A program made the translations under genes and the position numbers. From Candidatus Poribacteria bacterium (GTDB taxonomy: Bacteria > Poribacteria > WGA-4E > WGA-3G), in the NCBI GenBank assembly GCA_965205025.1, contig CBDBFU010000032.1, forward strand, positions 64,001 through 128,000: a DNA stretch of 64,000 bases, given 5' to 3'. The notes under the pieces are model-generated. The model ran no database searches and was not told where the DNA came from. It was given only the letters and a program-made list of their open reading frames with translations. Every line of letters starts with the position of its first letter. The stretch's first letter is position 1. This document shows positions 1,425 to 46,070 of the stretch, one piece after another.

Positions 1425-1530
1425 TCACCCCGGTGAATGACCTAATGTCATTCATACCGTTGATTCGAGGGGTGATATGTCTATAGAAAAAGGTATATCA
1501 ACATCCTGCACTCCAGCGGAGTGCTATGTA
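1425..1530 (+). repeat. Composite repeat: TCACCCC/GGGGTGA hairpin interrupted by the ~35-bp module, followed by a GCACTCCAGCGGAGTGC hairpin
   Basis: Module GGTGAATGACCTAATGTCATTCATACCGTTGATTC at 1432-1466. Block 1479-1530 is identical to 3261-3312. Confidence 0.85.
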
Positions 1531-1549
1531 GCATAACATACCGTAAAAT

Positions 1550-3016
1550 ATGAAAGTGGAACAACTGCATGGACCTGCAGTAAAACCGTCTCAAGTTGTT
1601 GAACTGGAATATCTTATACAATGCGATTCCCCTGAAATTTTTGGAATACATGGATTACAGAAAGAGGGGAGTATCATAGTAACACGAGCACCCGCGCGAC
1701 TTGACATTATGGGCGGGATAGCAGATTATTCTGGGTCAAATGTCTTTGAGATGACATTAAACCGAGCAGCTGTCGTCGCTTGTCAATCAAGAGAGGATAA
1801 TAATCTAAGAGCATTAACAATTCAACAAGTAGGTCTATTAAGACCATATTTTCAAATTACACTTGATGATTTTTACACTGATGGTTCATTGAAATCTTAT
1901 TCTGAAATTCGTAGTTTATTTAATGATGATCCTAAAACATCTTGGAGCGGGTACATACTTGGTTGCTTCTTCACTTTACTTAAAGAAAATAAAATTCAGA
2001 ATTTTCCACATGGCGCTGCTATTGCAATCAAAAGTGATATCCCAATGGGAGCAGGAATAGCATCTTCAGCAGCAATTGAAGTTGCAACCTTATGTGCTAT
2101 AAATCACCTTTACAATCTAAAATTAGAGGGAATTGAGATAGCCAGACTCGCTCAAATTGTCGAAAATAGAATTGTAGGTGCACCTTGTGGAATAATGGAT
2201 CAATTGACATCTGCTATTGGAACTCAAGGGAAGATTCTATCTATTCTTTGTCAACCTGATAAGATACTCGAATCCATAGAAATACCACATCAAGTTAGTT
2301 TTATAGGTATTCATACAAAAGTTCCTCGTAGTACAAAAAGTTCTGCCTATATTGACACACGAACAGCAGCCTTCATGGGATTACGTATTTTAAAAGAAAA
2401 ACTTAACTGGGATAAATTAGATGATAATTATCTATGTCATATAACTGTTCAAGAATTTCAGCAACACTGTTTGCCATTATTACCTAATGAAATGAAGGGG
2501 GTTGATTTTCTGGAGAAATATAACGGGACAGACGATAAGGTAACAGAAGTAGACCCTGATAAGGTTTATGCAGTTAAGGACAGGGTTAAACACCCGGTAT
2601 ATGAAAATGAACGTGTTAAACAATTTATCCATGCCATAAAAAATACTATAAAATATCCCAATAATGCCACGGAGTATTTATCAGAAGCTGGAACATTAAT
2701 GTATGAATCAAATGATAGTTATCGTGATTTAGCTGGACTGGGTTCACAGGAAATTGATGGACTTGTAAACATTGCAAGAAAAATTGGTGAAGATGCAGGA
2801 ATATATGGAGCAAAAATTACTGGTGGAGGCGGTGGTGGCACTGTTGCTATATTATGCTATGGAGATGTATCTATGGCATTGACACAGATCATCTCTGCGT
2901 ATAAATTGGCATGGGGAATCGAAACAGAAATCTTTGCCGGATCTACATACGGAGCATGTGAATTTGGACATATATTATGGGAGTTAAAAGAAAGTGAACC
3001 ACCAACTCATTTCTAA
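1550..3016 (+). CDS. GHMP-family sugar kinase (galactokinase / L-arabinokinase-like)
   Basis: RAPARLDIMGGIADYSG, PMGAGIASSAA (GHMP motif), CGIMDQ and GAKITGGGGGGTV. Confidence 0.85.
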   Translation: MKVEQLHGPAVKPSQVVELEYLIQCDSPEIFGIHGLQKEGSIIVTRAPARLDIMGGIADYSGSNVFEMTLNRAAVVACQSREDNNLRALTIQQVGLLRPYFQITLDDFYTDGSLKSYSEIRSLFNDDPKTSWSGYILGCFFTLLKENKIQNFPHGAAIAIKSDIPMGAGIASSAAIEVATLCAINHLYNLKLEGIEIARLAQIVENRIVGAPCGIMDQLTSAIGTQGKILSILCQPDKILESIEIPHQVSFIGIHTKVPRSTKSSAYIDTRTAAFMGLRILKEKLNWDKLDDNYLCHITVQEFQQHCLPLLPNEMKGVDFLEKYNGTDDKVTEVDPDKVYAVKDRVKHPVYENERVKQFIHAIKNTIKYPNNATEYLSEAGTLMYESNDSYRDLAGLGSQEIDGLVNIARKIGEDAGIYGAKITGGGGGGTVAILCYGDVSMALTQIISAYKLAWGIETEIFAGSTYGACEFGHILWELKESEPPTHF

Positions 3017-3131
3017 CATGTTTTACACACTACCCTGGTGCCTCTGGTCTCTAATACCATATTCAATTGATACTCTTACATTATGATTTAAGTGAAACAA
3101 AAACAATCATATACAGATTTATTAGTCCCGT

Positions 3132-3248
3132 ATGAAGTTAAAAAAATAAAATAGGTAATTTGGACCCAGAGCTGGTAGGTGCGGTTTCCTAACCGCACCG
3201 GATTCTACAAGAAACTGGAAATTACCCGAATAAATTCTTTAACTTCAT
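3132..3248. mobile_element. 117-bp non-autonomous element with bipartite TIRs (ATGAAGTTAAA-N11-GGTAATTT) and an internal GTAG REP hairpin
   Basis: Identical except for 1 nt to 28540-28656. Interrupts GTCCC-GTA-GGGA with the T duplicated. Confidence 0.9.
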
Positions 3249-3312
3249 TAGGGAGGAAAGGTCTATAGAAAAAGGTATATCAACATCCTGCACTCCAGCG
3301 GAGTGCTATGTA

Positions 3313-3428
3313 ATACCATTTCTATTTAAATAGTTCACATTATGAATACTCTTAGTAGTCCCCCTGATAAGGGGGATTTAGGGGGTCTCTTTAAGTTAAT
3401 AATGGGCGATAATTATTTAGAATGGTAT
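3313..3428. mobile_element. MITE with ATACCATT(T)CTA TIRs carrying a CCCCCTGATAAGGGGGATTTAGGGGG repeat
   Basis: ATACCATTTCTA at 3313 and TAGAATGGTAT ending at 3428. The same ends occur at 27131/27562, 27591/27705 and 57767/57878. Confidence 0.7.
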
Positions 3429-3539
3429 AAGTAGATAGGTGGCAACTTCAGTTAAATTAAGAGCAGCTATACAGAAGTACATCAGGATATCATAACAAAA
3501 GCATCCATGATGAACATAAAAAATTCAATTCAACTATAG

Positions 3540-5519: not shown

Positions 5520-6578
5520 ATGAAATTGACTTACTTCTTTCTATCTATATTGATGATTAGTTTAATCCTATCACATACAACTTTTGCTGCGGATGAAGGA
5601 GCACATGCAGCAGAATTCCTCAGCCACGGTGTCGGGGCAAGAGCACTCGGTATGGGAAGTGCATTTGTTGCTATCGCAGATGATTCCACCGCAACATACT
5701 GGAATCCTGCTGGACTGACAGATGTCGAAAACCACAGTTTTTCAGCTATGTATTCCGATACATTTGGATCCAGTGATGGCAGTTTTATTACAAATGGTCT
5801 CGTCAATTATAACTTTGTAAACTACGTTCACCAAATTGAAGATATAGGGAGTCTCGGCATTAGTTGGATTCGACTCGGTGTCGATGATATTCCACGGACA
5901 ACATTTATTGATATCGACAACAACGGAAAACTCGGGGATTATCAGGATATTAATGGAAATGGAGTAAAAGATACAGGTGAGCCTTACATTGATAGACCTA
6001 CAGTTGCAGGATATTTCAGTAATACAGATAACGCTCTTTTGATCTCTTATGCACGCAATATACAATCTGCAATCTCCGTTGGTGGAAGCGTGAAACTTCT
6101 AAAACAATCAATATTCGATTATAGTGGCAGCGGCTTCGGTATCGACTTAGGTTTTATATTTACCCCATATAAAGGACTAAGATTGGGGACAATGTTACTC
6201 GATGCAACTGGAACTCAAATTCGATGGGATACTGCTGACAATCCAATTTTCACACGCGGAAGAAGAATTAGAGTCGGTGGAGCATATCAATTTGCTTTCA
6301 ATCGATTGGGGAACGGATCTATCAGTGCTGATATCGAAACTGACCAAGCTGATTATACTGAAGGTACAGACTCAGGGGGTGGCATTATCTATCGAACTGG
6401 TGCGGAATTTTGGTTGTTTAACACCCTCGCATTACGGACTGGCTGGAACGGACAAGGTCTATCAATAGGATCTGGTTTACAGTTAAGAATCAGTAGTATG
6501 ACCTTCTTTGTAGATTATGCCTTTAATTCACATACCCTCGGCGGGTCACAACGCATCTCAGTCTCTGGACAATTCTAA
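5520..6578 (+). CDS. PorV/PorQ-like (FadL superfamily) outer-membrane beta-barrel protein
   Basis: Signal peptide, GARALGMGSAFVAIADDSTATYWNPAGL motif and C-terminal Phe. Confidence 0.8.
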   Translation: MKLTYFFLSILMISLILSHTTFAADEGAHAAEFLSHGVGARALGMGSAFVAIADDSTATYWNPAGLTDVENHSFSAMYSDTFGSSDGSFITNGLVNYNFVNYVHQIEDIGSLGISWIRLGVDDIPRTTFIDIDNNGKLGDYQDINGNGVKDTGEPYIDRPTVAGYFSNTDNALLISYARNIQSAISVGGSVKLLKQSIFDYSGSGFGIDLGFIFTPYKGLRLGTMLLDATGTQIRWDTADNPIFTRGRRIRVGGAYQFAFNRLGNGSISADIETDQADYTEGTDSGGGIIYRTGAEFWLFNTLALRTGWNGQGLSIGSGLQLRISSMTFFVDYAFNSHTLGGSQRISVSGQF

Positions 6579-6580
6579 TT

Positions 6581-6880
6581 GAGTCCCGTAGGGACGGAAT
6601 GTTTATAGAATAACTTGAAAATAAATAACTATTTCCTAATGCCAATAATGTAAACTAATCAATTAGAGTTGGTAATAGTTACATTTCTGTCTGTAATACA
6701 CACATAATTTACTTAAAGAAAATATTTCAATGTTAAGTATTAGAAGCCCCAGCGGGGCGAAATGTTTGTAGAAAACGTACTGAACCACTAAACCTAAGCC
6801 CAGGTGAATGCCATAAGGCATTCATACCGTTGATTTGCGGGGCGACATGTGTATCGCTCAAACTATCCAAACTATAGTTT
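6581..6880 (+). repeat. Intergenic cluster of REP-like hairpins (GTCCCGTAGGGAC, GCCCCAGCGGGGC x2, one interrupted by the 35-bp module)
   Basis: Hairpins at about 6581, 6746 and 6798. Region 6624-6672 recurs at 46022-46070. The tail TATCCAAACTATAGT matches the end of the 63745-63966 element. Confidence 0.85.
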
Positions 6881-7292: not shown

Positions 7293-9741
7293 ATGGCTAT
7301 TGAGAGCGCGGGAGCTTATGATGTATCTGTTATCCCACCAGATGTTGCTCGCGAAATTGAAATATATGAAATCAGACTTGGCCGCGCACAAGCAGGTCAA
7401 GGAGAGGAAAAAATCTGGACGGAATTTAGACTTCGTCATGGGGTCTATGGGCAACGTGATGATAGATCACAGATGATACGGGTAAAAATTCCATTCGGTG
7501 GACTTACCGCAGACCAACTTGAAATGTTAGCCGATGTCGCTGAAGAATTTTCCGATAATATCATTCACATTACAACACGACAAGATGTTCAATACCATTA
7601 TGTAGATATCAATCACACACCAGAACTCATGAGACGCCTGGCAAGTGTAGGTATTACAACCAAGGAAGCCTGTGGAAATGTCGTACGAAACGTTACAGCA
7701 TGTCCATTAAGTGGTGTGTGTCATGATGAATCTTTCGATGTCACCCCTTATTCAAAAGCTCTTTCCGCATTTCTATTGGGACATGAGGATGCAAAAGATT
7801 TTGGACGTAAATTCAAAATTGCATTTTCCGGTTGTGAAGAACACCCTTGCGGATTGGCAAATATGCACGACATCGGGGCAGTTGCAGCTGTAAAAGAGGT
7901 TGATGGGGAAGTTAAGAAGGGCTTTAAACTTTATGTTGGTGGTGGTCTTGGCGCTGTCCCACATCAAGCTAAAATCTTTGATGAATTTCTTCCAGCAGAA
8001 GAACTCCTTCCTATTTCTCAATCCATTTGTAGAGTTTTCACAAGATTAGGTGAACGAAAAAATCGGAATAAGGCACGTTTGAAATTTGTCATTGCTAAAT
8101 ACGGTATTGAAGAATTCCGTAAACTTGTCCTCGAAGATAGAGAAACATTAAGATATGACCCCGCTTGGACAGAATACCTTGATAATCTGGATGCCTATGA
8201 TGAAACACCCCTTAAACCACCTACACAACTCAACGGCGCATCAAATCCTGAAGGGTTTGATGAGTGGTATCAATCAAATGTTCGTTTACAACGTCAACCC
8301 GGTTATGCCTATGTAACGATTACACTTCCCCTGGGGGATCTAACTGCAGACCAAACCAGATCTTTAGCTGACATTTCACGTAAGTATGTAAAAGATACAA
8401 TACGTGCTACTGTTGAACAGAACATTGTACTACGATGGGTTACAATGACAGATCTACCCGCACTTTATAAAGAACTAACAGAGGTTGGTTTGGGTGATCC
8501 GGGGGCTGAATCCCTTGTGGATATTACCGCATGTCCCGGGACTGATTCATGTAAACTTGGAGTATCTTCTTCTCGTGGATTGGCTGGCACACCTCCGTGG
8601 ACATTTCATTGAAACTGGACATAAAGAAGATATAAAAGATTTCCGTATTAAGATAAGTGGATGTCCTAATTCCTGCGGACAACACCATATCGCAAATATT
8701 GGTTTCTTCGGTTCATCAAGGCGAATTGGTGAACATATTGCTCCGTACTATCAAGTTCTACTCGGTGGACACATGATTGAGAATGCCAGTTCCTATGGAC
8801 TTGCCACAGGAAAAATACACGGGAAGTATATTCCAGATTTCATTGAAGAATTAACAGGTAAATATTCTGATGAGAAGAATGGAGAAGAAACCTTTACTGA
8901 TTACGTCGCACGTCTCGGTAAAGCCGAAATCAAGCAAATCTTATCAAAGTATGATAAAATTCCTACTTATGAAGAAGCACCTGAATTCTATGTAGACACC
9001 GGTGACACCAAAGATTACCAACTCAAAACAGGTGTCGGTGAGTGTGCAGGAGAAGTCGTCGCACTTGTCTCTATGAAGTTAGATGAAGCCGATCGGTTAA
9101 TATATGAATCCGGTTTAGACTTAGAAAAAGGTGATTATCAAAAATCCGCTGAACTGGCTTTTAGTGCAATGATTAGAGCTGCAGATGGACTGCTAACGAC
9201 GGTTGGATTGCAATATATTGATGATGGAACAACCGTGAATGAATTCCGCACACACTTCTTTGAAGCTGGTAACTTCTTCCCAGGTTATGGGGGCACATAT
9301 ATTCAAGGCAACGGAAGAGGATGCATCTACATTTAACCAAGAATTGTCACACCGTCGTGTTGAGGAAGCCACTCTCTTTGTGGAAGAATCGCATAACGTG
9401 TACAATCGTATGCGGATTAAACAGGAAGAAGAGGAAGCAAGTCGGAAAAAGTCACGAAAATCCCGTACTGCAGCTAAACCGAAAGTCGTTAAAGAAACAA
9501 AGAAGGTTGAAGAAATCACTGACAGCCTTGATCTCAAAGGTGTTGCCTGTCCCTTCAACTATGTTTCAGGCTAAGGTACGGTTAGAGACTATGGATGTCG
9601 GTCAACTATTAGAAATCACCATTGACGATGGTGAACCAATTGAGAATGTACCCGTCAGTCTCTCTAATGACGGTCATGAAAATACTTGATACAAAGAAAA
9701 TTGGAAAACACTATCGTCTGACAATTAAAAAAGGTGAATAG
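7293..9741 (+). CDS. Siroheme [4Fe-4S] nitrite/sulfite reductase with a C-terminal TusA/SirA-like domain; four apparent +1 frameshifts
   Basis: HITTRQDVQ, RKFKIAFSGC, TACPGTDSCKLG, KISGCPNSCGQH and the TusA motif LDLKGVACPFNYV. One continuous protein is restored by removing single bases near 8586, 9290, 9565 and 9680. Confidence 0.85.
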
Positions 9742-22436: not shown

Positions 22437-22630
22437 GAGTCGCGGGGAATGCCAAAAGGCATTCCCCGGTGAATGTCTAATGAGGATTAAGTAAATATTT
22501 CGGTAATCCAGTCCATAAACTTATCGTAGGGGCGGGGTTAACCCGCCCGTATATTACCGAATTAATAAATTAATCTTCATATGTCATTCATTCCGTTGAT
22601 TTCTTGATTTGGTAGGGACGAAATGTCTAT
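22437..22630. mobile_element. Nested composite: GTCCC/GGGAC-type hairpin > 35-bp modules > 101-bp ATGAGG-TIR element (22480-22580) > GTAG REP
   Basis: TIRs ATGAGGATTAA-N11-GGTAAT and ATTACC-N11-TTAATCTTCAT. Internal GTAGGGGCGGGGTTAACCCGCCC at 22526. Confidence 0.85.
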
Positions 22631-24654: not shown

Positions 24655-27119
24655 TTATCTTTTATCGTTAGATATAACAGTTTCCCTAAACCAACACCGC
24701 CTCCCATCAGTTTTCAAAATAATCGCACCGAGTTGGTCCGTACGGAGTTGAATACAGTTCCGATCCTGATACCGAGAAACAACATCTGCATGTGGAAATT
24801 GATACCGATTCCCTTTACCCAGAGAATAGATAGCATAACGTGGTTGAACCGCATCCAAAAATTCTGCAGTACTTGACGTCCTACTTCCATGATGCGGAAC
24901 CTTTATTATTTCTGACCTTAGATCTTGTTGAGATGTCAATATACGTTTTTCAGCATTGGCTTCTATATCTCCACTAAACAATATATCCACCAAACCGTAG
25001 CTAACTTTCAACACCAATGAATCGTCATTCTTATCATCATCTATAAGATTTGTCTCATCTGCATCTATTGGGTGGAGTAGAGAAAGCGTTGCAGAAGGCG
25101 TGAATTCTATTTTCCCAGCATAGGGATAGGAATACGGTAGTTTTTGGGTTTTTGCAATGTTCCGTAGACGATTATGTGTTGATGAATCCAGTTCCATATC
25201 CGGAATTCCAATGAAATGTTTAACATTATAGTTTTGTAGTATGTAAGCAAGGCCACCACCATGGTCTAAATCCGGAATGTGTTAGCATAACCATATCAAC
25301 ACGTCTGATATTCTCAGAATCAAGATAGGGTTCAATTATCCGTTTACCTACATCATACTCCACTTCACGTTTCTTCTTTTCATTATAATAGGCATGTTGG
25401 ATACCCCCATCTACCAGCATAACCTGTTTATCAGGAAACCTGATAACTGCGGCATCACCTTGACCAACATCCAAAGTGGTTATTTCTAAGAGTCTACCCT
25501 CTTCTTTAAATCCTCTATCCCACACCCAGATTGTCAGAATTGATAATCCGATAAGACTCGCTATCCTCCACTGTTCATATAGATAACGCCACTGTGTAGC
25601 ACATATACATATCACGATGTAAATAAAGATAAGACCTATCGTTGGTGGAGCAATCTTTACTATCCCCCAATCTTGTCCAAATAGACTTATGAGTTTGAGG
25701 AATATATGCATAATAATCTGATTTATTATCCCTAACAATTTCGCTAATGGTAGCCAAATAAACCCAACACACACAGATGCCATTCCAACACCAACAATTA
25801 ATGACACAAGACCAACAGCAAACGGACCGACAATTATACCTAAGGGGTATGTTCTATAAAAATGGTAAGCGATAAGAGGAGAAGTGCCAATTTGTGCTGC
25901 CAAGGTTACCAGATAGGACAATACCAACCATTTTACTGCCGATCTTCTCATTTTTTGAAAATGGGTATACTCCACAGACTCCTCTGTATCCCAGAACTTT
26001 CGGAACGGTTTCTCCATTTTAGATACAAAGAATACAATTGCAGCAACCGCAACAAAAGAGAGTTGAAAACCTACATCCCATAACTGAGTAGGATTAATTA
26101 AAAGCAATACCAGTGCAGCAACCGCAAGTAAATTGTAAATATCCGCGTCCCTGTCAATAATTGTTGCAAACAGAAACAAGATCGCCATTAACGATGCACG
26201 AAATACTGAAGGACGAAAACCGACTAAACTCGCATAGAGAATTACACCTAAAATTGTTAGAAGACATACCATCTTTTTCGGCATCCGAAATATTGACAGT
26301 CCAAGGTAACAAAACAGTGCTATAAGACCTACATGTAATCCTGACACTGCAAGAACATGGAATGTTCCACTGTTCCGAAACATATCCAATGTTTCTGTCG
26401 GTACATCTCCTCGTTTTCCAAGTAGAATGCCTTTTAAGAGTTGAGCATGGAGTGATATTTCATTTTTAGGTGATGTATCCTGTTTTGAATAAGCATAATC
26501 AATAATCCGTTCTGTTCGAAAACGTAGTGATTCTATCCATCGTAATGGTAGGAATCCCGATTGTTTTCCAATTTGTAGTAATCCTTGGTGTTGGATAATT
26601 CCAGTTACATTTTGGCGTTCGAGATATGCTCGGTAATCAAACCCTCCAGGATTCCGTTTTGATTGGGGTTGCTGTAATACACCTGTTATAGTCAGATGTT
26701 TCCCGTATCGTAGTGAAACCAGATCTTGAAATCTTATTAAGCACTTAGCAGACACAGATTTGGTAGGATCAGATAATAGCTGAATCTTACCTACAGCATA
26801 GCATGCATCCCATGATTCTCCCCGTTCAGGTTGATAAACAGTTTTCCCTGTAAAACTGATCGGTTGTTCATAGAAGTTATCTGGTATTGATGGAACTGTT
26901 GCAACATCTAAACGCAACATACCACTGGCAAACACAGCAATATGTAAAAGTGTATAACAGATGTATTTTGATCGTTTTCTGGTGAAGATGCAACCCATCA
27001 GAAGTATCAGTACGGAAACCCAAATCCATAATAATGGAATTGATGTATACTCACCAGTGATGATACCTAAAATGAATGGAATAAGAAAAAAATAAGGCAG
27101 GACGAGACTTGAATGTCAT
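24655..27119 (-). CDS. comEC: DNA internalization competence protein ComEC/Rec2; two apparent +1 frameshifts (near 27090 and 25276)
   Basis: RNPGGFDY, HVLAVSGLHVG, GFQLSF, LDVGQGDA, restored THPDLDHGGG and KVPHHGSRTSS. Confidence 0.9.
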
Positions 27120-27130: not shown

Positions 27131-27562
27131 ATACCATTTTCAATTGATACACTTACGATTTAAGTGAAATAGGAACAATCATATATAGATTTATGAGTCC
27201 CGTAGGGACGAAATGTCTATAGAAAACGGGTTTATCCACTATCTTGAGTCCCATAGGGACGGAATGTTTATAGAAGTCAATATCACCAATACCCTAAGCC
27301 CCAGAGGGGCGAAAGGTTTGTAGAAAACGGTGAACCCACCAAACAAGCCCCAGCGGGGCGAAAGGTGTATCCCTAAATTGACGCCTATAGTGCGGTGAAT
27401 CAACGGTATGAATGCCATAAGGCATTCCCCGGGAAACCGCACCTACCGGGTTTGGGAAAAATAGAATTACCGAAATATTTACTTAATCCTCATCCAGTTT
27501 GTGCGGTATTTCAAGACATGTTTAACAACTGTTCATGAGATAAACATTTATAGAAATGGTAT
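27131..27562. mobile_element. 432-bp ATACCA-TIR composite MITE loaded with hairpin repeats, a module-interrupted REP and one end of an ATGAGG element
   Basis: ATACCATTTTCA...TAGAAATGGTAT ends. Hairpins at ~50-bp period (27195, 27246, 27298, 27347). 27466-27493 is the exact reverse complement of 22480-22507. Confidence 0.75.
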
Positions 27563-32360: not shown

Positions 32361-35300
32361 ATGAAACATATATACACGATTCTGATTATGTTTCTTATAT
32401 TAATAGGTTGTGCATCCCAACCTTCCGAATTTGTAGACATACCAGATGAAAGTTTGGCAAAAATCATTCGCCGTGAATTGGATTTGTATACATACGAACC
32501 TATACCCAAAGATAGACTAAAAGATCTAACCGAATTAACTATTGGCTATGCGAAACCACATGTAAAAAGTCTAAAAGGGTTAGAATCGGCTATAGGTCTA
32601 AAGAAACTAAGGATATATGGTTATTATGAGAAAATAGATATTAGTCCAATACGAAACTTAATAAATCTGACAGAATTAGGTCTATATCAAGTTCCCCTTA
32701 AGAATTTAAAAGCATTAAGGAATTTAACCCATTTGCGTGATTTAGGATTTGGGGATAATCGTATAAAGGACATCTCAGCAATCGTCCATTTGAAGAAACT
32801 AATAGATCTATATATTGGAAATAATCCAATCACAGATATTACACCACTAAGGGAATTAACAAACCTAACCCGATTAAGCTTTGGACAGAATCCAATTACT
32901 GATATCACACCACTAAAGGAATTAACAAACCTGACTCAATTAAGGATGGGAAATAATCAGGTCAGTGATATAAAACCACTTGCTAATCTAAAAAAACTAA
33001 CAACATTAACACTTTATGATAACCATATTAGTGATATAACACCACTATCAGAACTGACAAACCTTACAAAACTAAACATATTTCATAATAAAGTTAAGGA
33101 TATCTCACCACTGGCAGGCTTGACAGAACTAACCGCTTTAGAATTACACAATTCATTCAGTGATATCTCACCCCTTGCCGGTTTAACTAACCTTGTTGAA
33201 CTCGAACTCTATTCCAATGTAATTAGGGATATATCTGCTCTATCAAAATTAACAAAATTGACTGAATTACGTCTTGAGGAAAACTTGATATCCGATATTT
33301 CACCACTATCAGAATTGACTAACCTTACAACGCTTAGACTCCACAACAATCAGATTACTGATATTAAACCCCTGCGTAAATTGACGAATCTCCAATTATT
33401 GGAATTACACAGGAATAAAATCAGTGATGTTTCCCCACTTTCACAGATGAAACAGCTAAAAGGTTTATTCCTGGGTGGTAATCAGATTACAGACGTTACA
33501 CCATTAGTAGGATTATCTCAATTGACCCATTTGGGATTAGAATTCAACAACATTGCTGACATCAGAATTCTTGAAAATTTCAATTCTCTGAAGCAACTGA
33601 ATCTACTACAGAATCCAATACGGGAATTTACACAGATACGGAGATTACGAGAAAATAATCATGGTCTTGATATAAAGGTTCGGAACCCAAACCCAGAAGA
33701 ATGGACGAGAATTTATGGTAGACAGGAAACCCTTGACGGATTACCTTTCGGTGCTGTCCGTCGTCTGGGTAAGGGTGGTATAAATACTATGCTATTCTCA
33801 CCTGATGGCACATTACTTGCTGTCGGTACAGATACTGGTTTGCGTTTATATGAAGTATCTACAGGGAAGGAAATGGATATACCTAAGAAGAATTTTTCAC
33901 AGGTCAATTCCTTAGCATTCTCACATGATGGAAAGATATTAGCAAGTGCGGGTGTATCAAACACAAAAATTCAACTTTGGGATATTCAGAAGCAGATTGC
34001 GTATTATCCTATTCCTGTTCCATCAAATGCGCGGATTAATATGTACCCAATACATACTACACCTACAATGGCTTTTTCAAAAGACAATTCAACCCTCATC
34101 ACCATAAGTCATAATGGACTTATTAATCATTGGGACATACAAACAAGTAATAATATGGCAGCCTTAACTATTAATGCCTATACTCATGAAGGTCCAATGG
34201 CTATAAATTCTGATGGAACTAAATTCGTAAGTGGCCGTTGGGATGGTAAAATTGATCTTTGGAAAACGACAGGTGGTGAGATGGGACATTGGAAGCAGAA
34301 TATTCCTAAACTGAAGAAACCATATAAGACATTAAAAGGACATTCCCGTACCTTTGACAATAATAGTTGGATTGCCAAACTGTTTAAGATTAGAAGGGAT
34401 TCAGATATTATGTCAATCACCTTCTCTCCAGATGGTAAAAAACTTGCTACAGGAAGTATGGACACCGATGTTCAATTGTGGGATGCCGTCAAGAACAAGA
34501 AACTTAAGACATTTCAGGGACATACAGGTTGGGTTACCGCTATAGCAATTTCAAAGGATGGAAAATACCTTGCAAGCGGTGACACAGATAGTGTTGTCCG
34601 AATTTGGGATGCAGATAAAGGTTCTGAATTGGCATTCCTGGAGGAACACAGGAACTGCATTCTATCACTTGCTTTTACACCGGATGGAAAAACACTTGCC
34701 AGTGGAAGCGCGGATGGAACAATACGATTTTGGAATACAAGCACTGGTGAATTAATCTCTGTTTTTGCAAACGATCATACAGAGTCTGTCAGACATGTTG
34801 TATTTTCAGGAAATGGACAAAATATATCGAGGGTTATGTTCAATGGAAAGGTAAAACAAAATGAGATTGAAACAGGAGATGAAATCTATACTTTCACACC
34901 AGATAATAAAGAAATATTGACAGCAACTACAATATCCGCAGACGTTTCACTCTTAGCAACTTATGAGTTAGACCATGTAATAGCATTTAATCATCATGGC
35001 ACAAAGACTAAAATGAGATACCATAGATATGAAATTCCTCGTGGATATACAACCTACAAAAAAGAAAATGAAATTTCATTATGGAATTTACTGAGTGGCG
35101 AGAAACACAGTTCTATCATCGGAGGACGAGGCATGGTCATCTCTCCCGATAACAGTATACTCGCCAGTAGAACATCCGATAAAATACGATTATGGGATAT
35201 TGAGAAAGAAATTGAACGTTCTCCTATAATAACCGATAATGAATCTTTTCTGTTTTCTCCTGATGGTTCACTACTAATAATTGAGGGAGACCCTTTTGAT

Positions 35301-35774
35301 AAATCAGCACAGATATTTGATGTAAAAAAACAGCAAAATATCGCCACAATACATCAACGATGTGAACCTTTAGCATTCTCACCTGACGGTTCGAAGCTTG
35401 TCTGTAAGAGTGGTTTTGGAGGTTATATATTAGACCTTACAATTCCAACCGAACCGCATATTTTCGACGAGATAGATTTATTTATAACCAATATCTATGC
35501 GGCTACATTTTCCCCAGACAATACAATTCTCTTAGATACAGCATATCTGTTATATGACTGGTATAGTCACGCGGAGATTCAATTGTGGGATATGGATACA
35601 GGAGAAAAACTACATAAACTCCACGGACATACAGAACCGATAAATTCTCTTACATTTTCTCCTGATGGAAAAACGCTTGCCAGTGCTTCTGAAGACGGTA
35701 CCGTTCTGCTATGGGATTGGGATGAAATAATGGCAGATGTTATTCTTGAAAATAGATATCCAAATGATCGTTAG
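32361..35774 (+). CDS. Lipoprotein with internalin-like 22-aa LRRs fused to WD40 propellers
   Basis: Lipobox LILIGC, about 15 xLxLxxNxIxDIxPL repeats, then GLPFGAVRRLGKG and FSPDG...LASGS.DGT..LWD repeats. Confidence 0.9.
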   Translation: MKHIYTILIMFLILIGCASQPSEFVDIPDESLAKIIRRELDLYTYEPIPKDRLKDLTELTIGYAKPHVKSLKGLESAIGLKKLRIYGYYEKIDISPIRNLINLTELGLYQVPLKNLKALRNLTHLRDLGFGDNRIKDISAIVHLKKLIDLYIGNNPITDITPLRELTNLTRLSFGQNPITDITPLKELTNLTQLRMGNNQVSDIKPLANLKKLTTLTLYDNHISDITPLSELTNLTKLNIFHNKVKDISPLAGLTELTALELHNSFSDISPLAGLTNLVELELYSNVIRDISALSKLTKLTELRLEENLISDISPLSELTNLTTLRLHNNQITDIKPLRKLTNLQLLELHRNKISDVSPLSQMKQLKGLFLGGNQITDVTPLVGLSQLTHLGLEFNNIADIRILENFNSLKQLNLLQNPIREFTQIRRLRENNHGLDIKVRNPNPEEWTRIYGRQETLDGLPFGAVRRLGKGGINTMLFSPDGTLLAVGTDTGLRLYEVSTGKEMDIPKKNFSQVNSLAFSHDGKILASAGVSNTKIQLWDIQKQIAYYPIPVPSNARINMYPIHTTPTMAFSKDNSTLITISHNGLINHWDIQTSNNMAALTINAYTHEGPMAINSDGTKFVSGRWDGKIDLWKTTGGEMGHWKQNIPKLKKPYKTLKGHSRTFDNNSWIAKLFKIRRDSDIMSITFSPDGKKLATGSMDTDVQLWDAVKNKKLKTFQGHTGWVTAIAISKDGKYLASGDTDSVVRIWDADKGSELAFLEEHRNCILSLAFTPDGKTLASGSADGTIRFWNTSTGELISVFANDHTESVRHVVFSGNGQNISRVMFNGKVKQNEIETGDEIYTFTPDNKEILTATTISADVSLLATYELDHVIAFNHHGTKTKMRYHRYEIPRGYTTYKKENEISLWNLLSGEKHSSIIGGRGMVISPDNSILASRTSDKIRLWDIEKEIERSPIITDNESFLFSPDGSLLIIEGDPFDKSAQIFDVKKQQNIATIHQRCEPLAFSPDGSKLVCKSGFGGYILDLTIPTEPHIFDEIDLFITNIYAATFSPDNTILLDTAYLLYDWYSHAEIQLWDMDTGEKLHKLHGHTEPINSLTFSPDGKTLASASEDGTVLLWDWDEIMADVILENRYPNDR

Positions 35775-39516: not shown

Positions 39517-40899
39517 TTGCACTATAACGCTGCACTCGCCTATATTGAGCAGTTCATTGACTATGAAAGAAGTCCTGACTTTTCTCGACAGGCACGATTC
39601 TATAATCTAAATCGTATATCCCAATTACTTGAACTGCTTGGTAACCCACACGAAAAATTGAAAGTTGTCCATGTAGCAGGGAGTAAGGGTAAAGGGTCAA
39701 CTGCTGCAATCATCGCATCTATCCTAACACATGCAGGCTATAAGACAGGTTTATTTACATCACCACATCTTATTACGCCACGTGAACGATGTCGTATTGA
39801 TAATGACCTGATTTCTGAAGAAGAATTTGCACACTATCTTAAAAAAATAAGAACCGCAATTGAAACCGTTTCCAACTCAGAATACGGAAGAGTTTCATTT
39901 TTTGAGATATATACAGCACTCGCTTTTACCTATTTTGTGGATAAAGAAACAGACTTCGCTGTAATTGAAGTTGGGTTAGGCGGTCGACTTGATGCAACAA
40001 ATGTCGTATCACCGGTCATATCTGTCATTACTCCGATAGGGTTAGAACATACGGAGATATTGGGAGAGACTTATTTTGAAATAGCAGGCGAAAAAGCAGA
40101 AATCATCAAGGATGGATGTCCTGTGGCACTTGCCCCCCAACACCCGGATGCTCATAGAGTTTTCGATCAAGTTGCAAATGAGCGAAATTCACCTACAATT
40201 AAAGTAAAGAATATTGATGATCAAGACACTTATAAAATAAATATTAAGCATAAACTCGATTCTGAAAGAATACCTATAGCACAGCAATTTGATATAATAA
40301 CGAATTCGGATAGTTATCAAGGTCTTATATTATCTCTGATCGGATACCATCAGTATGTAAATGCTGCGACTGCAATTGCAGCGATTGAATGTTTAGAATT
40401 ACAAGGATATACAATTAAGAAAGAATCCATGTATGAAGGATTTCGAAATGTACAGTGGGATGGTCGTCTTCAAAGGATGAAATCTTCACCACTTGTAATT
40501 CTGGATGGAGCACATTCTCCTGTTTCGATGGAAGCACTAACACGCTCCATTCGCAATACATACCGTTACGCGCAAGTGGTTTTCATCGTTAGTTTAATGA
40601 GAGATAAAGATATTGCTGAAATTGGAAGAATCATCTCAAAAATTGCGGATTCCGTTGTAATCACACAAGTTTCAGATAACCCACGTGTCATACCAGCAGA
40701 TATTATCAAAAATACTTGGACAGACATTTGCATGAAAGTAGATACATGTCCAAACCCAGAAGAAGCAATAACAATAGAATTAGCAAACGCATCACCGACA
40801 GACTTAATATGTATTACAGGTTCACTCTACCTTGTCGGACAAGCACTTGAATTGTTCAAAACGAAATATGAACTAAAAAGAGAGGTTATTAATGCGTGA
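39517..40899 (+). CDS. folC: Folylpolyglutamate synthase / dihydrofolate synthase
   Basis: HVAGSKGKGS, FTSPHL, EVGLGGRLDATN, LDGAHS and TGSLYLVG. Confidence 0.95.
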   Translation: MHYNAALAYIEQFIDYERSPDFSRQARFYNLNRISQLLELLGNPHEKLKVVHVAGSKGKGSTAAIIASILTHAGYKTGLFTSPHLITPRERCRIDNDLISEEEFAHYLKKIRTAIETVSNSEYGRVSFFEIYTALAFTYFVDKETDFAVIEVGLGGRLDATNVVSPVISVITPIGLEHTEILGETYFEIAGEKAEIIKDGCPVALAPQHPDAHRVFDQVANERNSPTIKVKNIDDQDTYKINIKHKLDSERIPIAQQFDIITNSDSYQGLILSLIGYHQYVNAATAIAAIECLELQGYTIKKESMYEGFRNVQWDGRLQRMKSSPLVILDGAHSPVSMEALTRSIRNTYRYAQVVFIVSLMRDKDIAEIGRIISKIADSVVITQVSDNPRVIPADIIKNTWTDICMKVDTCPNPEEAITIELANASPTDLICITGSLYLVGQALELFKTKYELKREVINA

Positions 40900-43259
40900 A
40901 ATTAATTGCCAAAGAAGGTGGCTAAATTGGAAGTTATTTTTAACATGCTTACCCATATTTAGTTTAGCCACCACGGCTTTTGGCCAAACACCAACAGACC
41001 CTCACCCACCAATTCCAGGTATTTGGTGGATTGCCCCTATTGGGGCACTCATTGCTTTAGTTTTTGCATACTTTTTTTACCGCTCCGTGATGAAACAGGA
41101 CGAAGGTAATGAAACTATGCAGGATATTGCACAATCTGTTCGTGAGGGCGCAATGGCGTATCTCAGACAACAGTATAAAGTCGTAGGAATTGTTTTCGCT
41201 GTTCTCTGCATCATTTTTATCTTCATGGCTTTTATCCTTAAAGCACAAAATGAAGTCATCCCGTTTGCCTTCCTTACAGGAGGGTTTTTCTCTGGTCTAT
41301 GCGGTTTCCTTGGAATGAAAACCGCTACGAATGCTTCCGCACGCACCACAAGTGCTGCTATGCAGGGACTCAACTCCGGTTTAAAGGTGTCGTTCCGGGC
41401 AGGTGCGGTCATGGGATTGATAGTCGTAGGGTTTGCACTCTTGGATATTACTGGATGGTTTTTGATATTATATTACTTATTCCCAAAAATATTACCAAAT
41501 TTCTTAGGGGATAACCCACTACCCCAAATAACAGTTATTATGCTCAGTTTTGGTATGGGTGCTTCAACACAAGCTCTGTTTGCACGTGTAGGAGGTGGAA
41601 TCTATACAAAAGCTGCAGATGTTGGCGCTGATCTTGTCGGAAAGGTTGAAGCAGGGATTCCTGAAGATGATCCTCGAAATCCTGCTACAATTGCTGATAA
41701 TGTTGGCGATAATGTCGGAGATGTCGCAGGTATGGGTGCTGATCTCTACGAATCATACGCAGGCTCAATCCTTGCTACCGCTGCCCTTGGGGTTGCTGCT
41801 ATTGCTGCAAAAGAACATGATAACCTATTACTCCAGTTGAAATATCTATCTGCTCCTATGATTATTGCGGGTATAGGTGTAATCCTATCAATCATTGGTA
41901 TTTATATGGTACGCACAAAAGAAGGTGCAACCATGCGTCAGTTAATGGGTTCACTCAACCTTGGTATAAATGGGAGTGCTTTAGGTATTGCTATAGTTTC
42001 TCTACCTGTCTTGATTTATCTTGATCTTCCGAATAAATGGCAGATTTGGGGTGCAATTGTTACAGGACTTGTAGCAGGAATAATTATCGGTAAAGTTACC
42101 GAGATATTTACCTCACATGAATATAAACCTACACGTGCCATAGCAAAACAGGCACAAACTGGTCCAGCAACAGTTATTATAGAAGGTATTGCTGTCGGCA
42201 TGGAATCAACTGCAATCCCTGTGATAACGATAATCGCTGGTGTTGCCATAAGCTACTATCTGCCGGGGGGAACGAATGAACCATTGATGGGACTTTACGG
42301 TGTCGGTATCGCTGCAGTCGGTATGTTGGCAACCCTGGGGGATCACTCTTGCTACGGATGCTTACGGTCCAATCGCTGATAACGCCGGTGGAAATGCTGA
42401 GATGTCTCAGCTTGACGAGAGTGTTAGAGGACGTACAGATCAATTGGATGCACTCGGAAATACCACTGCCGCAACAGGTAAAGGTTTTGCTATTGGTTCA
42501 GCAGCACTCACTGCCCTGGCACTTCTTGCTGCATATCTTGAAGAGATACGATACGGTCTTATCCATTTAGCAGGAAAAACCCAATTGGAGATTCCAGGTG
42601 AAGGGAGTGTTGATACATTAAAGGTTTCTGTAAGCCAATTTATGGATTACTATAATGTAACTTTGATGAATCCTCAAGTTCTCATAGGATTGTTCATCGG
42701 TGCTGTCATGGCGTTCTACTTCTGTGCATTAACAATGAAAGCTGTTGGACGCGCAGCGGGTGCTATGGTAGAAGAGGTGCGTCGTCAATTCCGTGAAAAA
42801 CCGGGTATTATGGAAGGCACAGAAAAACCGGATTACGCAAGGTGTGTTGAGATCTCCACTGCTGGAGCACAACGCGAGATGATATACCCATCCCTAATTG
42901 CTATTATTGTTCCTGTCGCTGTCGGATTACTCTTCAATGTCGCTGGTGTTCTTGGACTACTTGCAGGTGGATTAGCTTCAGGTTTCGTTTTGGCAATCAT
43001 GATGGCAAATGCTGGCGGTGCTTGGGACAATGCTAAGAAGTTCATTGAAGAAGGTAGTCATGAAGAAGAATACGGTGGAAAAGGATCTGAACAGCACAAA
43101 GCAACTATTGTAGGTGATACTGTTGGTGATCCGTTTAAAGATACTTCCGGTCCTTCTCTAAACATCCTTATCAAGTTAATGTCTATGGTCTCAGTAGTTT
43201 TTGCAGGTCTTATCGCAAAATATGGTCATGTAGTTAGCACTTGGATTGGAATGCAGTAA
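40892..43259 (+). CDS. hppA: K+-dependent membrane pyrophosphatase (Na+,H+-PPase signature); apparent +1 frameshift in the G5 run near 42338
   Basis: [46 protein letters not shown] and [14 protein letters not shown]. Confidence 0.95.
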
Positions 43260-43301
43260 AATTAGTTACCTGTTTCAATTGGATAAAATGGAGAATTAAG
43301 T

Positions 43302-43808
43302 ATGAGAATCAGAAATAATATCAGTATCATTCTATGCTTTTTAGTCTTCTGCACAATTGCATGTGAAAAATCACCGAATGCTATGAAGGATACTCTATCT
43401 GTCTCTAACGACAATACAGAACCTATAGACACAATTTATACTGGTAATGTAGTTATTGGCGAGATGGATAAGAAGTATGGTATTGATCCTTTCGAACTCA
43501 ATTCCGCTGTGATACAAGATGATTTCTTGAAAGTCAACGTGTCCTATAGTGGTGGATGCAAAATCCACGAATTTACTTTGGTTTCATCAGGTGTATTTCT
43601 TGAATCACATCCTGTACAACTCATGGTTTCTATTGCTCATAATGCCAATAACGACTCGTGTGAAGCATACCCCACTGAAGATTACAGTTTTGATCTAACA
43701 CCTATCAAGACAATATATCAGAAAGCTTACCAACAGGATGCAGGTACGATTGTAATTCGTCTCAAAGATTATACCAACGGGGACCTTGTCTACAAATTTG
43801 ACAACTAA
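43302..43808 (+). CDS. Hypothetical lipoprotein
   Basis: Signal peptide ending TIAC, GGAG RBS and YSGGCKIHEF...DSCEA. Confidence 0.7.
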   Translation: MRIRNNISIILCFLVFCTIACEKSPNAMKDTLSVSNDNTEPIDTIYTGNVVIGEMDKKYGIDPFELNSAVIQDDFLKVNVSYSGGCKIHEFTLVSSGVFLESHPVQLMVSIAHNANNDSCEAYPTEDYSFDLTPIKTIYQKAYQQDAGTIVIRLKDYTNGDLVYKFDN

Positions 43809-43917
43809 ACCTATCTTAGAGATAATTATCAACCATTAGAACTATAAGAATTTCAAATTCTACTTTAACAGTCCTATCTCTACACCCGTTTTATAAACTC
43901 TTAGGAGAATACAGAAA

Positions 43918-45597
43918 ATGCCTAATAAACTGAAACCCCGTAGTTATGCGATAACCGACGGACCGGACCGTGCTGCAGCACGTACGATGCTTATGTTCGG
44001 GGATGGGGGTCTGTCCCCAGAAGATCTTGATAAACCGATTGTTGGGGTCGCCAATACTTGGATCGAAATTGGTCCCTGTAATTTCCATTTAAGACGACTG
44101 GCAGCAAAAGTAAAACAGGGAATTCGTGATGCAGGTGGTACACCCCTTGAATTCAACACCGTTAGCATATCGGATGGTATTACCATGGGAACAGAAGGCA
44201 TGAAAACATCATTGATTAGCCGAGAAGTTATCGCCGATTCTATTGAATTGGTTTCTATCGGTAATATGTTTGATGCCGTTGTGACCCTTTGTGGATGTGA
44301 TAAAACCGTCCCGGGTACAGTTATGGCATTGTCCAGAATAGATATTCCATCTCTCACTCTATATGGTGGATCTATCATGCCGGGAAATTTCCAAGGACGC
44401 GATGTTACAATCCAAGATGTGTTTGAAGCAGTTGGACAACATGCCGAAGGTACAATCACTGTTGAAGAATTGGACGATCTGATTAGTAAAGGATGTCCAG
44501 GCCCCGGGGCATGTGGTGGTCAGTTCACTGCGAATACCATGGCAACTGCTGTTGAAATGTTAGGTATTGCTCCTATGGGTAGCGGTAGTGTTCCTGCTGT
44601 TGCAGAAGAGAAGGATGAAGAAGCATACAAGACGGGTAAGCTTGTTATGGATATGTTGGCTGCCGATAGACGACCCAGTCAGATTATTACACGCAAGTCT
44701 ATTGAAAATGCAATCACTTCTGTTGCTGCAACGGGTGGATCTACCAATGGAATTCTTCATCTCCTCGCCATTGCTTATGAGGCACAAATCCCGTTGACAA
44801 TTGAAGACTTTGATGTGATTAGCAAGAGGACTCCTGTATTGGCAGATTTGAAACCAGGTGGTCAGTTTGTTGCAACTGATTTGTATGAAGCAGGTGGTAT
44901 TCAATTTTTAGCCAAACGTTTAGCAGAAGCTGGATTGCTCCATACCGATGAACTTACTGTCACTGGTAAAACGATTGGTGAAGAGGCAAACGCAGCCGAT
45001 GAGACAGAAGGACAGGTAGTTGTTAGACCTTTAAATGAACCTTTGAAACCCACTGGAGGGTTTGCTATATTGAAGGGTAATTTAGCACCGGATGGATGTG
45101 TCATCAAATTAGCCGGTCAAGAGAAAACTTTACATCGTGGTCCTGCGCGTATTTTTGAACGAGAAGAGGATACATTCGCAGCGATTAAAGGGGGTGAAAT
45201 CAACCCCGGAGATGTTGTGGTTATCCGTTATGAAGGCCCAAATGGTGGTCCCGGTATGCGTGAAATGTTAGGGGTTACCGCTGCCTTGGTCGGTGCAGGA
45301 TTAAGTGAAGATGTTGCACTTCTAACCGATGGTAGATTCTCAGGAGCAACTCATGGATTTATGATATGCCATGTCGCACCAGAAGCATCTATAGGGGGTC
45401 CTATAGCAATACTGGAAGAGGGAGATGAAATCGTAATTGACGCTGAAACGAGACGGCTTGATGTATCACTTTCTGAAGATGAAATCAAGACACGTTTTGA
45501 GAAGTGGACGCCTCCTGAACCCCGCTATACCCGTGGTGTGATGGCAAAATATGCAAAGTCTGTTTCTTCTGCCTCTGAAGGTGCTGTGACAGGATAG
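43918..45597 (+). CDS. ilvD: Dihydroxy-acid dehydratase
   Basis: [40 protein letters not shown] and TDGRFSG. Confidence 0.97.
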
Positions 45598-45629
45598 ACC
45601 TATCGTTTACTAACAAGATTCTCTTATAT

Positions 45630-45658
45630 GGGACAGATGGTTCATCTGTCCCTTATTT
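45630..45658 (+). terminator. Putative intrinsic terminator
   Basis: GGGACAGATG-GTT-CATCTGTCCC followed by TTATTT, after ilvD. Confidence 0.7.
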
Positions 45659-45907
45659 CGTTAATCCTTAAACAGAAAAACCTTGTCAGATTAATTTGAA
45701 TTATGTAGAATATACTTAGTCGTGATAGAGAATTTTGTCATATTTGAAATGTCTAAGCAATATACATACTTCTGGATTTTAGAAAGTTATACTGTTTTCA
45801 ATTGAAATATCTACATTACGATTTTTCATCTAAATAGACTAATTAGTTGTAAAATTAGAGTGCTGTAAAAACGGTATGTATATAGAATATACGTCTTAAC
45901 ATATTCT

Positions 45908-46070
45908 GAGTCCCGTAGGGACGGAATGTCTATAGAAAAACTATGAAAACCTAAACTGAGTCCCGGGGAATGCCTAAATGGCATTCATACCGTTGATTTG
46001 GTAGGGACGGAATGTTTATAGAAATAACTATTTCCTAATGCCAATAATGTAAACTAATCAATTAGAGTTG
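45908..46070 (+). repeat. Two GAGTCCCGTAGGGACGGAATGT units, the second interrupted by the 35-bp module
   Basis: Empty unit at 45908 and filled unit at 45958-46020, side by side. Confidence 0.88.

Follow-up and report, generated by a model that had tools for sequence, protein, structure and literature searches.

Very small mobile repeats without terminal inverted repeats have, to our knowledge, been described essentially only in one cyanobacterial family. These are the small dispersed repeats (SDRs) of the Nostocaceae, 21 to 27 nt in size, whose hairpin form, nesting within their own copies, and related traits were reportedly described by Elhai et al. in 2008. Here, we describe a hairpin element from a very different organism that seems to rank among the tiniest pieces of mobile DNA so far known. 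It was found in a 64,000-nt stretch of DNA, hereafter called the window, from a Candidatus Poribacteria bacterium (GenBank assembly GCA_965205025.1, contig CBDBFU010000032.1, positions 64,001 to 128,000 of the forward strand). We give about an even chance to the reading that the element is a non-autonomous, very small mobile hairpin of Candidatus Poribacteria, akin to SDRs and to repetitive extragenic palindromic (REP) sequences, that is moved in trans as folded single-stranded DNA (ssDNA), an enzyme of the Y1 HUH type being the leading candidate for the mobilizing activity.

Several other systems have features that bear on the element. REP palindromes carry a conserved GTAG at the 5' foot. 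Insertion sequences of the IS200/IS605 family insert strand specifically into ssDNA targets, that of ISDra2 being TTGAT, and the attC sites of integrons have the core GTTRRRY. For the cyanobacterial repeats, PMC4390886 puts SDR5 after the third base of the highly iterated palindrome HIP1 and before the fourth. The same insertion appears in PMC5861425, according to which SDR-like repeats were not found outside the Nostocaceae. For REP sequences, PMC3116915 relates that REP clusters arise by insertion into or beside existing copies, that the REP-associated tyrosine transposase (RAYT) is encoded by a single-copy gene, that the replicative unit of REPINs is an inverted doublet, and that the IS608 transposase recognizes two REP-like palindromes.

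Anatomy, covariation, and distribution of the element

As read from the window sites, the unit has the form C-GG-(G/T)-GAATGCC-(4-6 nt)-GGCATTC-ATA-CCG-TTGATT-(T/C). It is 35 to 37 nt long, and the core of the commonest exact variant is 34 nt. To describe the parts from the base upward, a 3-bp foot (CGG/CCG) leads to an asymmetric internal loop, in which G or T lies opposite ATA, and then to a 7-bp stem (GAATGCC/GGCATTC or compensated variants) closed by a free loop of 4 to 6 nt. The hairpin is followed by a single-stranded 3' tail with the almost invariant core GTTGATT. The ends of the element, CGGGG.. and ..TTGATTY, are not inverted repeats.

Is this a true repeat? The 17-mer CATTCATACCGTTGATT has five exact matches in the window (1449, 6819, 24510, and 45982 on the plus strand and 27398 on the minus strand) and one with a single mismatch (22585). 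These six real matches compare with 0.43 expected from shuffled windows, and none of 100 shuffles reached seven. The seventh match, at 35960 with three mismatches, was set aside as a chance occurrence, lying inside an open reading frame (ORF) without a hairpin. A covariance model made from 46 distinct copies recovers five full-length copies in the window (44 to 61 bits) and a palindrome at 22443-22468, which is the hairpin part of the element without its ATACCGTTGATT tail. In all, the window thus contains five copies that are complete, a palindrome that lacks the tail, and a further copy split by an insert resembling a miniature inverted-repeat transposable element (MITE). They are intergenic in every case, and each lies between the inverted arms of a host palindrome. 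In single-strand DNA folds, the host stem closes around the element hairpin with z scores of -3.9 to -4.4 (-4.3 for the copy at 1431).

The pairing of the stem has been kept while its sequence changed. Among 95 distinct model matches, in an alignment that had been fitted to the model, 8 of 10 pairs changed on both sides and 97.5% of the cells are paired. These values were reached in 0 of 500 shuffles, and slid registers gave 16 to 48% pairing. Whole-stem swaps that keep the tail (GAACGCC/GGCGTTC, TTCATGCC/GGCATGAA, TAAAGCC/GGCTTTA, and GAAGCCC/GGGCTTC) occur in copies that the model found outside the 17-mer selection, and a further swap in a model-found copy, CAAATGCC/GGCATTTG, carries the tail TAGCGTTGATT. 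The constraint is thus on structure in the stem and on sequence in the tail, and the most constant part of the element is GTTGATT.

These results bear out much of the initial annotation, which had been made from the sequence of the window alone. It had proposed a real repeat with several copies in the window, as the 17-mer counts and the covariance model (a check of its own suggestion) agree in showing; an oriented unit without terminal inverted repeats, made up of a structure-constrained hairpin and a sequence-constrained tail, in line with the covariation; and a 3' tail that is almost invariant, which fits the near-constancy of GTTGATT, exaggerated as this is by the choice of loci through an exact 17-mer. 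Both compensatory stems that it named, GAATGAC/GTCATTC and GAATGCC/GGCATTC, are present in the window, and its statement that every window copy splits a host palindrome stands, the arms having been read at each copy. Its coordinates hold with small corrections. The two nested copies that it placed at 22444-22610 prove to be three parts, the tail-less palindrome, the interrupted copy, and an extra CTTGATTT.

How widespread is the element? A scan of species-representative genomes with the 17-mer gave at least 88 stretches (loci L001 to L088), of which 80 were tabulated. Seventy-seven of these come from 32 assemblies, 31 labeled Candidatus Poribacteria and 1 labeled "uncultured bacterium." The element is carried by at least 32 species-level assemblies, and the 17-mer is almost exclusive to Candidatus Poribacteria among the matches listed. 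The remaining three (L020, L031, and L054) come from other phyla and have the 17-mer without the hairpin, for which reason they are read as chance matches. Parts of the window are syntenic with the Poribacteria loci L079 and L038 at 77 to 81% DNA identity, and the window thus belongs to Poribacteria and not to a cyanobacterium. The 17-mer is unchanged in at least 32 species-level genomes, even though their coding sequences share only 66 to 84% identity.

Copies lie mostly between genes: 4 of 105 overlap stop-to-stop ORFs of at least 120 amino acids (aa), and the 3 of those ORFs that were scanned (L037:1757-2146 with NCBIfam, and L076:1922-2323 and L084:2-370 with Pfam) have no family match. 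The neighbors are housekeeping genes, such as rpoB/C, rpsA, dnaE, and genes for ribosomal proteins, and no link of the copies to any gene class emerged from the window and flank ORFs scanned. Between co-directional genes, 41 copies are in the sense and 17 in the antisense orientation, and 11 copies occupy convergent versus 19 divergent spacers.

The family is apparently undescribed so far. Rfam 15 has no match in the window at the gathering score, the element together with its host arms is unmatched in phage and plasmid collections, and HIP1, GCGATCGC, does not occur in the window. No account of such repeats in Poribacteria was found in a literature search that covered few subscription journals, and the letters of the motif turned up there in unrelated primers only.

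Insertion sites, nesting, and composites

The hosts into which the element is inserted resemble classical REPs with GTAG heads, the GTAG being found in the hosts and not in the element. Comparison of filled and empty hosts allows the insert to be delimited. Between the hosts at 45904 and 45958, it is GGGG...GATTTG, placed between the C and the G of the loop. Clean C^G insertion of this unit is seen in three families: (i) GAGTCCC^GTAGGGAC, (ii) ..CATAC^GCGTATTC, which is the loop in a related hairpin, and (iii) ..GGGAACTCC^GATTCCCGAC (..AACTCC^GATTCCC). In one host family, CGGGG...GATT is inserted at GGTAGG^TGCGG, and in other families, 1 to 5 host nucleotides are replaced (GCGACC-T-TT-GGTCGC, GGCGAGG-T-TT-CCTAACC, AAGGGG-GA-TTTAGGGGG, GCGCA-AA-CTGTTAG, and the element's own tail, ATACC-G-TTGATT). 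The comparison reveals no target duplication, no terminal inverted repeats, and no fixed target word, the clean cases sharing only C^G. A single insertion rule was considered and dropped, as the tail junctions, in which the outer G is replaced (..ATACC[element]CTTGATT), conflict with the clean C^G rule of the three families. An automatic search offered a filled/empty candidate for 56 of 83 contexts, several of them trivial (own tail) or spurious (for example, L003, L069, L070, and L088), and the filled/empty argument draws on the recurrent host families only. Insertion into REP-like palindromes, with filled and empty hosts side by side, was part of the initial annotation and is confirmed by the three empty hosts in Table 1 and by paralogous hosts, filled and empty, in several families.

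The REP-like host family of the window, D12, consists of a GC hairpin (GAGTCCC-NNN-GGGAC or AAGCCCC-AGC-GGGGC) and a conserved tail, G(G/A)AATGT(C/T)TATAGAAA. It has 11 window copies, including those at 6577-6612, 6740-6775, 24431-24466, 27191-27226, 27242-27277, 27292-27327, and 45904-45939. These hosts are built as a hairpin plus a 3' tail, as the element is.

Does the element enter only the loops of hairpins, as initially claimed? In 21 of 89 distinct contexts (about 24%), the flanks form a perfect stem of 5 bp or more within 8 nt, versus 4.4% in a mismatched-flank control, in which left and right flanks were taken from different copies. Flank duplexes reach -10 kcal/mol or better in 31 of 77 contexts (about 40%), versus 11.8% in the control (Mann-Whitney p = 2e-5). 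The site is the tail of the element itself, and hence no loop, in about a fifth of the contexts and the loop of a related hairpin in about a ninth; in at least one host family, the insertion sits in a stem arm, and some insertions are beside a hairpin. Hairpins are thus preferred, and "only in loops" is too strong for copies outside the window. The fraction of matches with inverted arms, proposed at the outset as a check, is above the control and yet far from all. Orientation relative to an asymmetric host motif matches in 37 of 41 cases, not all of them independent because several genomes share composites of the form CCCCTGATAAGGGG[element]CTTTAGGGGG in which the loop is the same.

The element also nests in itself. 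Nested arrays consist of n hairpin-ATACC units, then G-TTGATT, and then (C/T)-TTGATT units, with n hairpin units paired with n TTGATT tails, as in L001, H1(H2()H3(H4())), and L016, five and five. These copies inside copies bear out the nested arrays of the initial annotation. Most copies are singlets; among the exact matches listed, 15 close pairs comprise 11 direct and 4 inverted ones. The commonest 34-nt variant, its free loop TAAAT included, occurs in 12 assemblies (counting that of the window) and has 15 different flanking contexts, and its presence in 15 hosts suggests that the element moves independently of any single carrier. Composites of host and element are themselves repeated, and the spread is therefore partly passive. 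The content of orthologous spacers varies: a copy in L079 has no counterpart in the window (48593-48706), and L007 and L030 each have copies that the other lacks. This presence/absence comparison, also envisaged initially, succeeded as far as spacer content between species goes and did not recover exact empty orthologous sites; it is coarse because intergenic DNA is too diverged for such sites to be recognized across species.

Certain composites and arrays deserve separate mention. The host repeat ..CCCCTGATAAGGGGGATTTAGGGGG.. is empty at about 3363 and about 49757 of the window and also in L012 and L064, and it carries the element in 11 sampled contexts, mostly with the loop CATAAG; the predominance of one loop suggests that the filled composite is itself repeated as a unit. 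A three-level composite lies at the centers of L010, L017, L021, L046, L058, and L076, where a variant hairpin, GAATCATG/CATGATTC, surrounds a hairpin, GCGAATAC...GTATTCGC, whose loop, CATAC^GC, holds the canonical element. Similar composites occur in several genomes. An array of five TTGATTTC units lies 3' of the element in L034 (about 2011-2050), and three to four CTGATT units likewise lie 3' of it on the minus strand of L016 (about 1930-2000). In L034, tail units outnumber hairpins, and slippage thus seems to add to nesting. L065 contains (about 1985-2060) a perfect long palindrome with 35-nt arms and element tail plus stem on both sides of the loop (GGCGAGGTTAGGAAGAAATCAACGGTATGAATGCC and its complement), which looks like a strand-switch or hairpin-completion product.

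Table 1. Copies of the element, their host arms, and related features in the window
Feature	Position	Strand	Details
Complete copy, stem GAATGAC/GTCATTC	1431-1466	+	Exact 17-mer; model, 54.7 bits
Host arms of copy at 1431, CTCACCC / GGGGTGA	1424-1430 / 1469-1475	+	Host tail TATGTCTATAGAAAA 3' of the arms
Empty host AAGCCCC-AGC-GGGGCGAAATGTTTGTAGAAAA	6740-6775	+	Family D12; 60 nt upstream of filled host
Complete copy	6802-6836	+	Exact 17-mer; model, 56.0 bits
Host arms of copy at 6802, AAGCCC / GGGGCG	6796-6801 / 6839-6844	+	Imperfect
Tail-less perfect palindrome CGGGGAATGCC-AAAA-GGCATTCCCCG	22443-22468	+	Model, 22.3 bits; 11-nt arms, 100% complementary
Interrupted copy CGGTGAATGTC ... GTCATTCATTCCGTTGATTT	22467-22602	+	17-mer with one mismatch at 22585
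MITE-like insert, ~97 nt	22482-22578	+	In loop of interrupted copy; ~26-nt terminal inverted repeats
Extra CTTGATTT	22603-22610	+	Directly 3' of interrupted copy
Host arms of 22.4-kb cluster, GAGTCGC / GGGAC	22437-22443 / 22615-22619	+	Imperfect
Empty host GAGTCCC-ATA-GGGACGGAATGTTTATAGCAAA	24431-24466	+	Family D12; beside filled host
Copy with two stem mismatches (GAATACC/AGCATTC) and extra CTTGATTC	24492-24535	+	Model span 24492-24527, 43.9 bits
Host arms of copy at 24492, GAGTCCC / GGGAC	24486-24492 / 24538-24542	+
Complete copy	27397-27431	-	Exact 17-mer; model, 60.4 bits; fold z score, -4.4
Host arms of copy at 27397, GTGCGGT / ACCGCAC	27390-27396 / 27436-27442		Plus-strand reading
Empty host GAGTCCC-GTA-GGGACGGAATGTCTATAGAAAA	45904-45939	+	Family D12, 94% to reference copy; 50 nt upstream of filled host
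Complete copy, commonest variant, loop TAAAT	45964-45999	+	Exact 17-mer; model, 61.3 bits
Host arms of copy at 45964, GAGTCCC / GGGAC	45958-45964 / 46004-46008	+

The MITE-like insert belongs to a repeat family distinct from the element, with ends GAGGATTAAGTAAATATTTCGGTAAT... One such end recurs on the minus strand at 27466-27488, beside the 27.4-kb copy (0 expected by chance), and related ends occur in L034, L040, and L073. A comEC gene, found in the window (25226-26998, minus strand) and also in L004 and L013 (with a gene for ComF in the latter), adjoins copies of the element. The spacer upstream of comEC holds a copy in both the window and L004, in opposite orientations, which points to separate insertions in the same spacer.

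Other features of the window are of a different kind. Five tandem paralogous genes for WD40-repeat proteins (614 to 650 aa, 126-nt periodicity) occupy 49850-59923 on the minus strand, and a 1,137-aa protein with leucine-rich and WD40 repeats is encoded at 32361-35774 on the plus strand; such eukaryote-like repeat proteins are typical of sponge symbionts. The gene for an H+-pyrophosphatase is split into overlapping ORFs (40892-42379 and 42300-43259), as is that for a NirA-like sulfite/nitrite reductase (7293-8612 and 8485-9336), the orthologue of which in L038 is one ORF of 656 aa. The splits could be frameshifts, pseudogenes, or sequencing errors. About 2 kb between ilvD and a pseudouridine synthase gene (45597-47684), with an HSDR_N-like ORF (46133-47236), a helix-turn-helix ORF (47274-47600), one copy of the element, and two host repeats, are missing from the syntenic locus L079, where the gap is 54 nt, and look like a small insertion island.

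Possible routes of movement

How might so small a unit move? In the reading given at the outset, the element would be copied, now or recently, in trans as a folded single DNA strand by a hairpin-recognizing enzyme, with a Y1 HUH transposase, either RAYT-like or IS200/IS605-like, as the leading candidate. The hairpin would act as the handle for the protein and the tail as the site of cleavage or joining. Preferred targets would be DNA that becomes single-stranded when small palindromes are extruded, that is, loops and edges, with the cleanest junctions at C^G. Once in a host repeat, the element might also spread passively, as composites of host and element are repeated. The hairpin with its internal loop, the conserved tail, the oriented insertion, the absence of terminal inverted repeats and target duplications, and the GTAG-headed REP hosts together fit best with such Y1 HUH movement of ssDNA in trans, and the housekeeping neighbors are counted in favor of non-autonomy.

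Is a suitable enzyme encoded near the copies? The initial annotation had advised looking for a Y1 HUH/RAYT gene flanked by the motif, and none was found within 2 kb of about 100 copies (about 380 kb in all), a weak negative because the surroundings of about 100 copies, drawn from 32 genomes, would seldom happen to include a single-copy gene. When 837 flank ORFs were clustered all against all, the only recurrent neighbors were GFO/IDH/MocA oxidoreductases, WD40 proteins, and short-chain dehydrogenases, which are simply large gene families of these genomes. In the NCBIfam scan of L001 to L044, which covered 133 of 150 flank ORFs (the other 17 being cluster members known as GFO/IDH/MocA or WD40 proteins and the ORFs of two chance loci), the mobile-type matches were an IS3 fragment in L029 and an IscB/HNH-like ORF in L036, the latter weak. 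The 40 window proteins scanned represent housekeeping genes, repeat proteins, and two DNA methyltransferases.

Several results weigh against this reading. No Y1, RAYT, or IS200 family was found among the 133 flank ORFs just mentioned, nor anything mobile, these families included, by Pfam among 98 of the 141 ORFs of L045 to L088, those of up to 330 aa. No transposase was found among the 40 window proteins, and a phmmer search with Escherichia coli RayT against 2,668 six-frame ORFs gave a best E value of 0.44. The unit has a single hairpin, as opposed to the two different ends of IS200/IS605 elements; the listed close pairs, mostly direct, show no inverted-doublet arrangement; no fixed target word is apparent; and the replacement of host nucleotides is not predicted by precise HUH cutting and joining. 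Much of the copy number may stem from amplification of composites and not from independent insertion, the invariance of the tail is overstated because loci were chosen by an exact 17-mer, and the mispairs (nine G.T versus seven A.C) do not indicate which strand folds.

Could the intermediate be RNA? A transcribed hairpin RNA might be reverse transcribed or reverse spliced into DNA at exposed loops, and an RNA intermediate has reportedly been proposed for the cyanobacterial SDRs by Elhai et al. in 2008. A covarying hairpin suits RNA as well as ssDNA, insertion is oriented and without target duplication, and from the sense bias (41 versus 17) most copies would be cotranscribed. That bias could equally be one of replication strand, however, G.U wobbles are not above A.C mispairs, no Rfam family matches, and the flank ORFs scanned (in the second half of the loci, those of up to 330 aa only) include neither a reverse transcriptase nor a group II intron ORF, so that we consider this route quite improbable. 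The replaced nucleotides suit a scheme with no dedicated transposase, in which palindrome loops are cut, for example by SbcCD-type nucleases, or replication stalls there, and repair or template switching copies the element via G/C-rich microhomologies at the cost of a few loop nucleotides. In most host families, 1 to 5 loop nucleotides are indeed replaced, junctions fall at G/C runs (..CCC|GGGG.. and ..GGGG|CGGGG), and the growth of tandem TTGATTTC or CTGATT units in L034 and L016, along with the L065 palindrome, resembles slippage and strand-switch products. Yet the boundaries of the element are constant to 1 to 3 nt across unrelated hosts, its orientation to hosts is fixed (37 of 41), and only the element and its close kin are "captured" despite other repeat families nearby, all of which makes this origin unlikely.

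The element might instead owe its conservation to selection as a cis-acting site, be it for protein binding, as an mRNA-stability hairpin, or as an uptake-type signal, with its copy number coming chiefly from the mobility of the REP or MITE repeats that carry it. The identity of the 17-mer across species-level genomes as diverged as these would be expected of such a site, the sense bias is compatible with it, composites such as CCCCTGATAAGGGG[element]CTTTAGGGGG are shared by several genomes, loop and all, and genes for ComEC and ComF occur in these genomes. A selected site would not be expected to form arrays nested in themselves, with as many as five copies, or to occur in interrupted and decayed form, however; there is no tie to any gene class among the ORFs scanned, gene 3' ends are not enriched (11 convergent versus 19 divergent spacers), the stem is not followed by a U-run, TTGATT shows no excess of -10-like boxes at promoter spacing, and the same variant sits in 15 different hosts. 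We see only a small chance that selection of this kind accounts for the repeat.

Some simpler identities were tried and rejected. A portable promoter, with TTGATT as the -35 and the host TATAGA as the -10 box, looked good in four window copies, but -10-like hexamers occur at 16 to 18 nt in 13 of 100 cases, versus 32 of 200 at shifted spacings. An intrinsic terminator would require a U-run, in the place of which ATACCG follows the stem, and convergent spacers are fewer than divergent ones. The element is not a MITE, having neither terminal inverted repeats nor target-site duplications.

To return to movement of ssDNA in trans, a bolder version may be put forward tentatively, and with clear reservations. 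The element would then be a transposable unit of about 35 nt with a single hairpin, active throughout the phylum and inserting strand specifically into its own tail and into loops that become single-stranded when REP palindromes are extruded. Many Poribacteria species would have a conserved master sequence in common, and the SDRs would be joined by another lineage of very small mobile elements, the second and an independent one.

The element occurs in an uncultivated phylum of sponge symbionts for which complete genomes are plentiful, and its anatomy is clear, its sites can be seen both filled and empty, and it forms nested arrays. The question of mechanism is thus open to simple biochemistry and to genome comparison. 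With closed Poribacteria chromosomes available by the dozen, the mobilizing enzyme could be found by phyletic correlation; if the reading is true, it might explain how SDRs move as well. Nested palindromes also account for some of the intergenic DNA that makes Poribacteria genomes rich in repeats and are likely to affect assembly, the annotation of small ORFs, and strain typing.

The element among known systems

Where does the element belong? It is best grouped with the hairpin elements of SDR/REP-like type, which are very small and non-autonomous. SDR1 to SDR8 are the closest parallel, a likeness judged from descriptions and not from SDR sequences, and the comparison with cyanobacterial repeats made in the initial annotation was apt. 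Both the element and SDRs are very small, lack terminal inverted repeats, form hairpins with compensatory changes, insert precisely inside other repeats or palindromes, and nest in their own copies, with short tandem repeats nearby, and for neither has a mobilizing enzyme been found. They differ in host phylum (Poribacteria versus cyanobacteria), in size (35 to 37 nt for the element, which is above the 21 to 27 nt of SDRs), in the conserved 12-nt single-stranded 3' tail of the element, and in their targets, which are REP-like hairpin loops for the element and HIP1 or heptamer arrays for SDRs.

With REP sequences and REPINs, the element shares a short, extragenic, imperfect palindrome with compensatory stem changes, non-autonomy, and, as a common trait, hundreds of copies. 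In contrast to REPs, it has no 5' GTAG, the consensus start being CGG(G/T)GAATG and the complement ..CGGTATGAATG with GGTAT. Unlike REPINs, it occurs as oriented singlets or direct arrays and not as inverted doublets, and it has a conserved 3' tail. No RAYT gene was found beside any sampled copy.

The subterminal hairpins of IS200/IS605 elements and of palindrome-associated transposable elements are likewise imperfect, with unpaired bases and a short conserved single-stranded stretch to the end, and these elements also lack terminal inverted repeats and target duplications and insert in an oriented manner. Yet the element has one hairpin and not distinct left and right ends, no fixed 4- to 5-nt left-flank target is apparent (only C in the clean cases), and several of its junctions replace host bases. 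Its TTGATT tail resembles the ISDra2 target TTGAT but lies inside the element, at the 3' end, and this resemblance is a lead only. Finally, integron attC sites, which are recognized by their structure, also fold as single-strand hairpins with extrahelical bases, and the GTT-containing box of the element, GTTGATT, lies near the point at which copies are interrupted. It departs from GTTRRRY, however, and the element, with no cassettes and no integrase context, is dispersed beside housekeeping genes.

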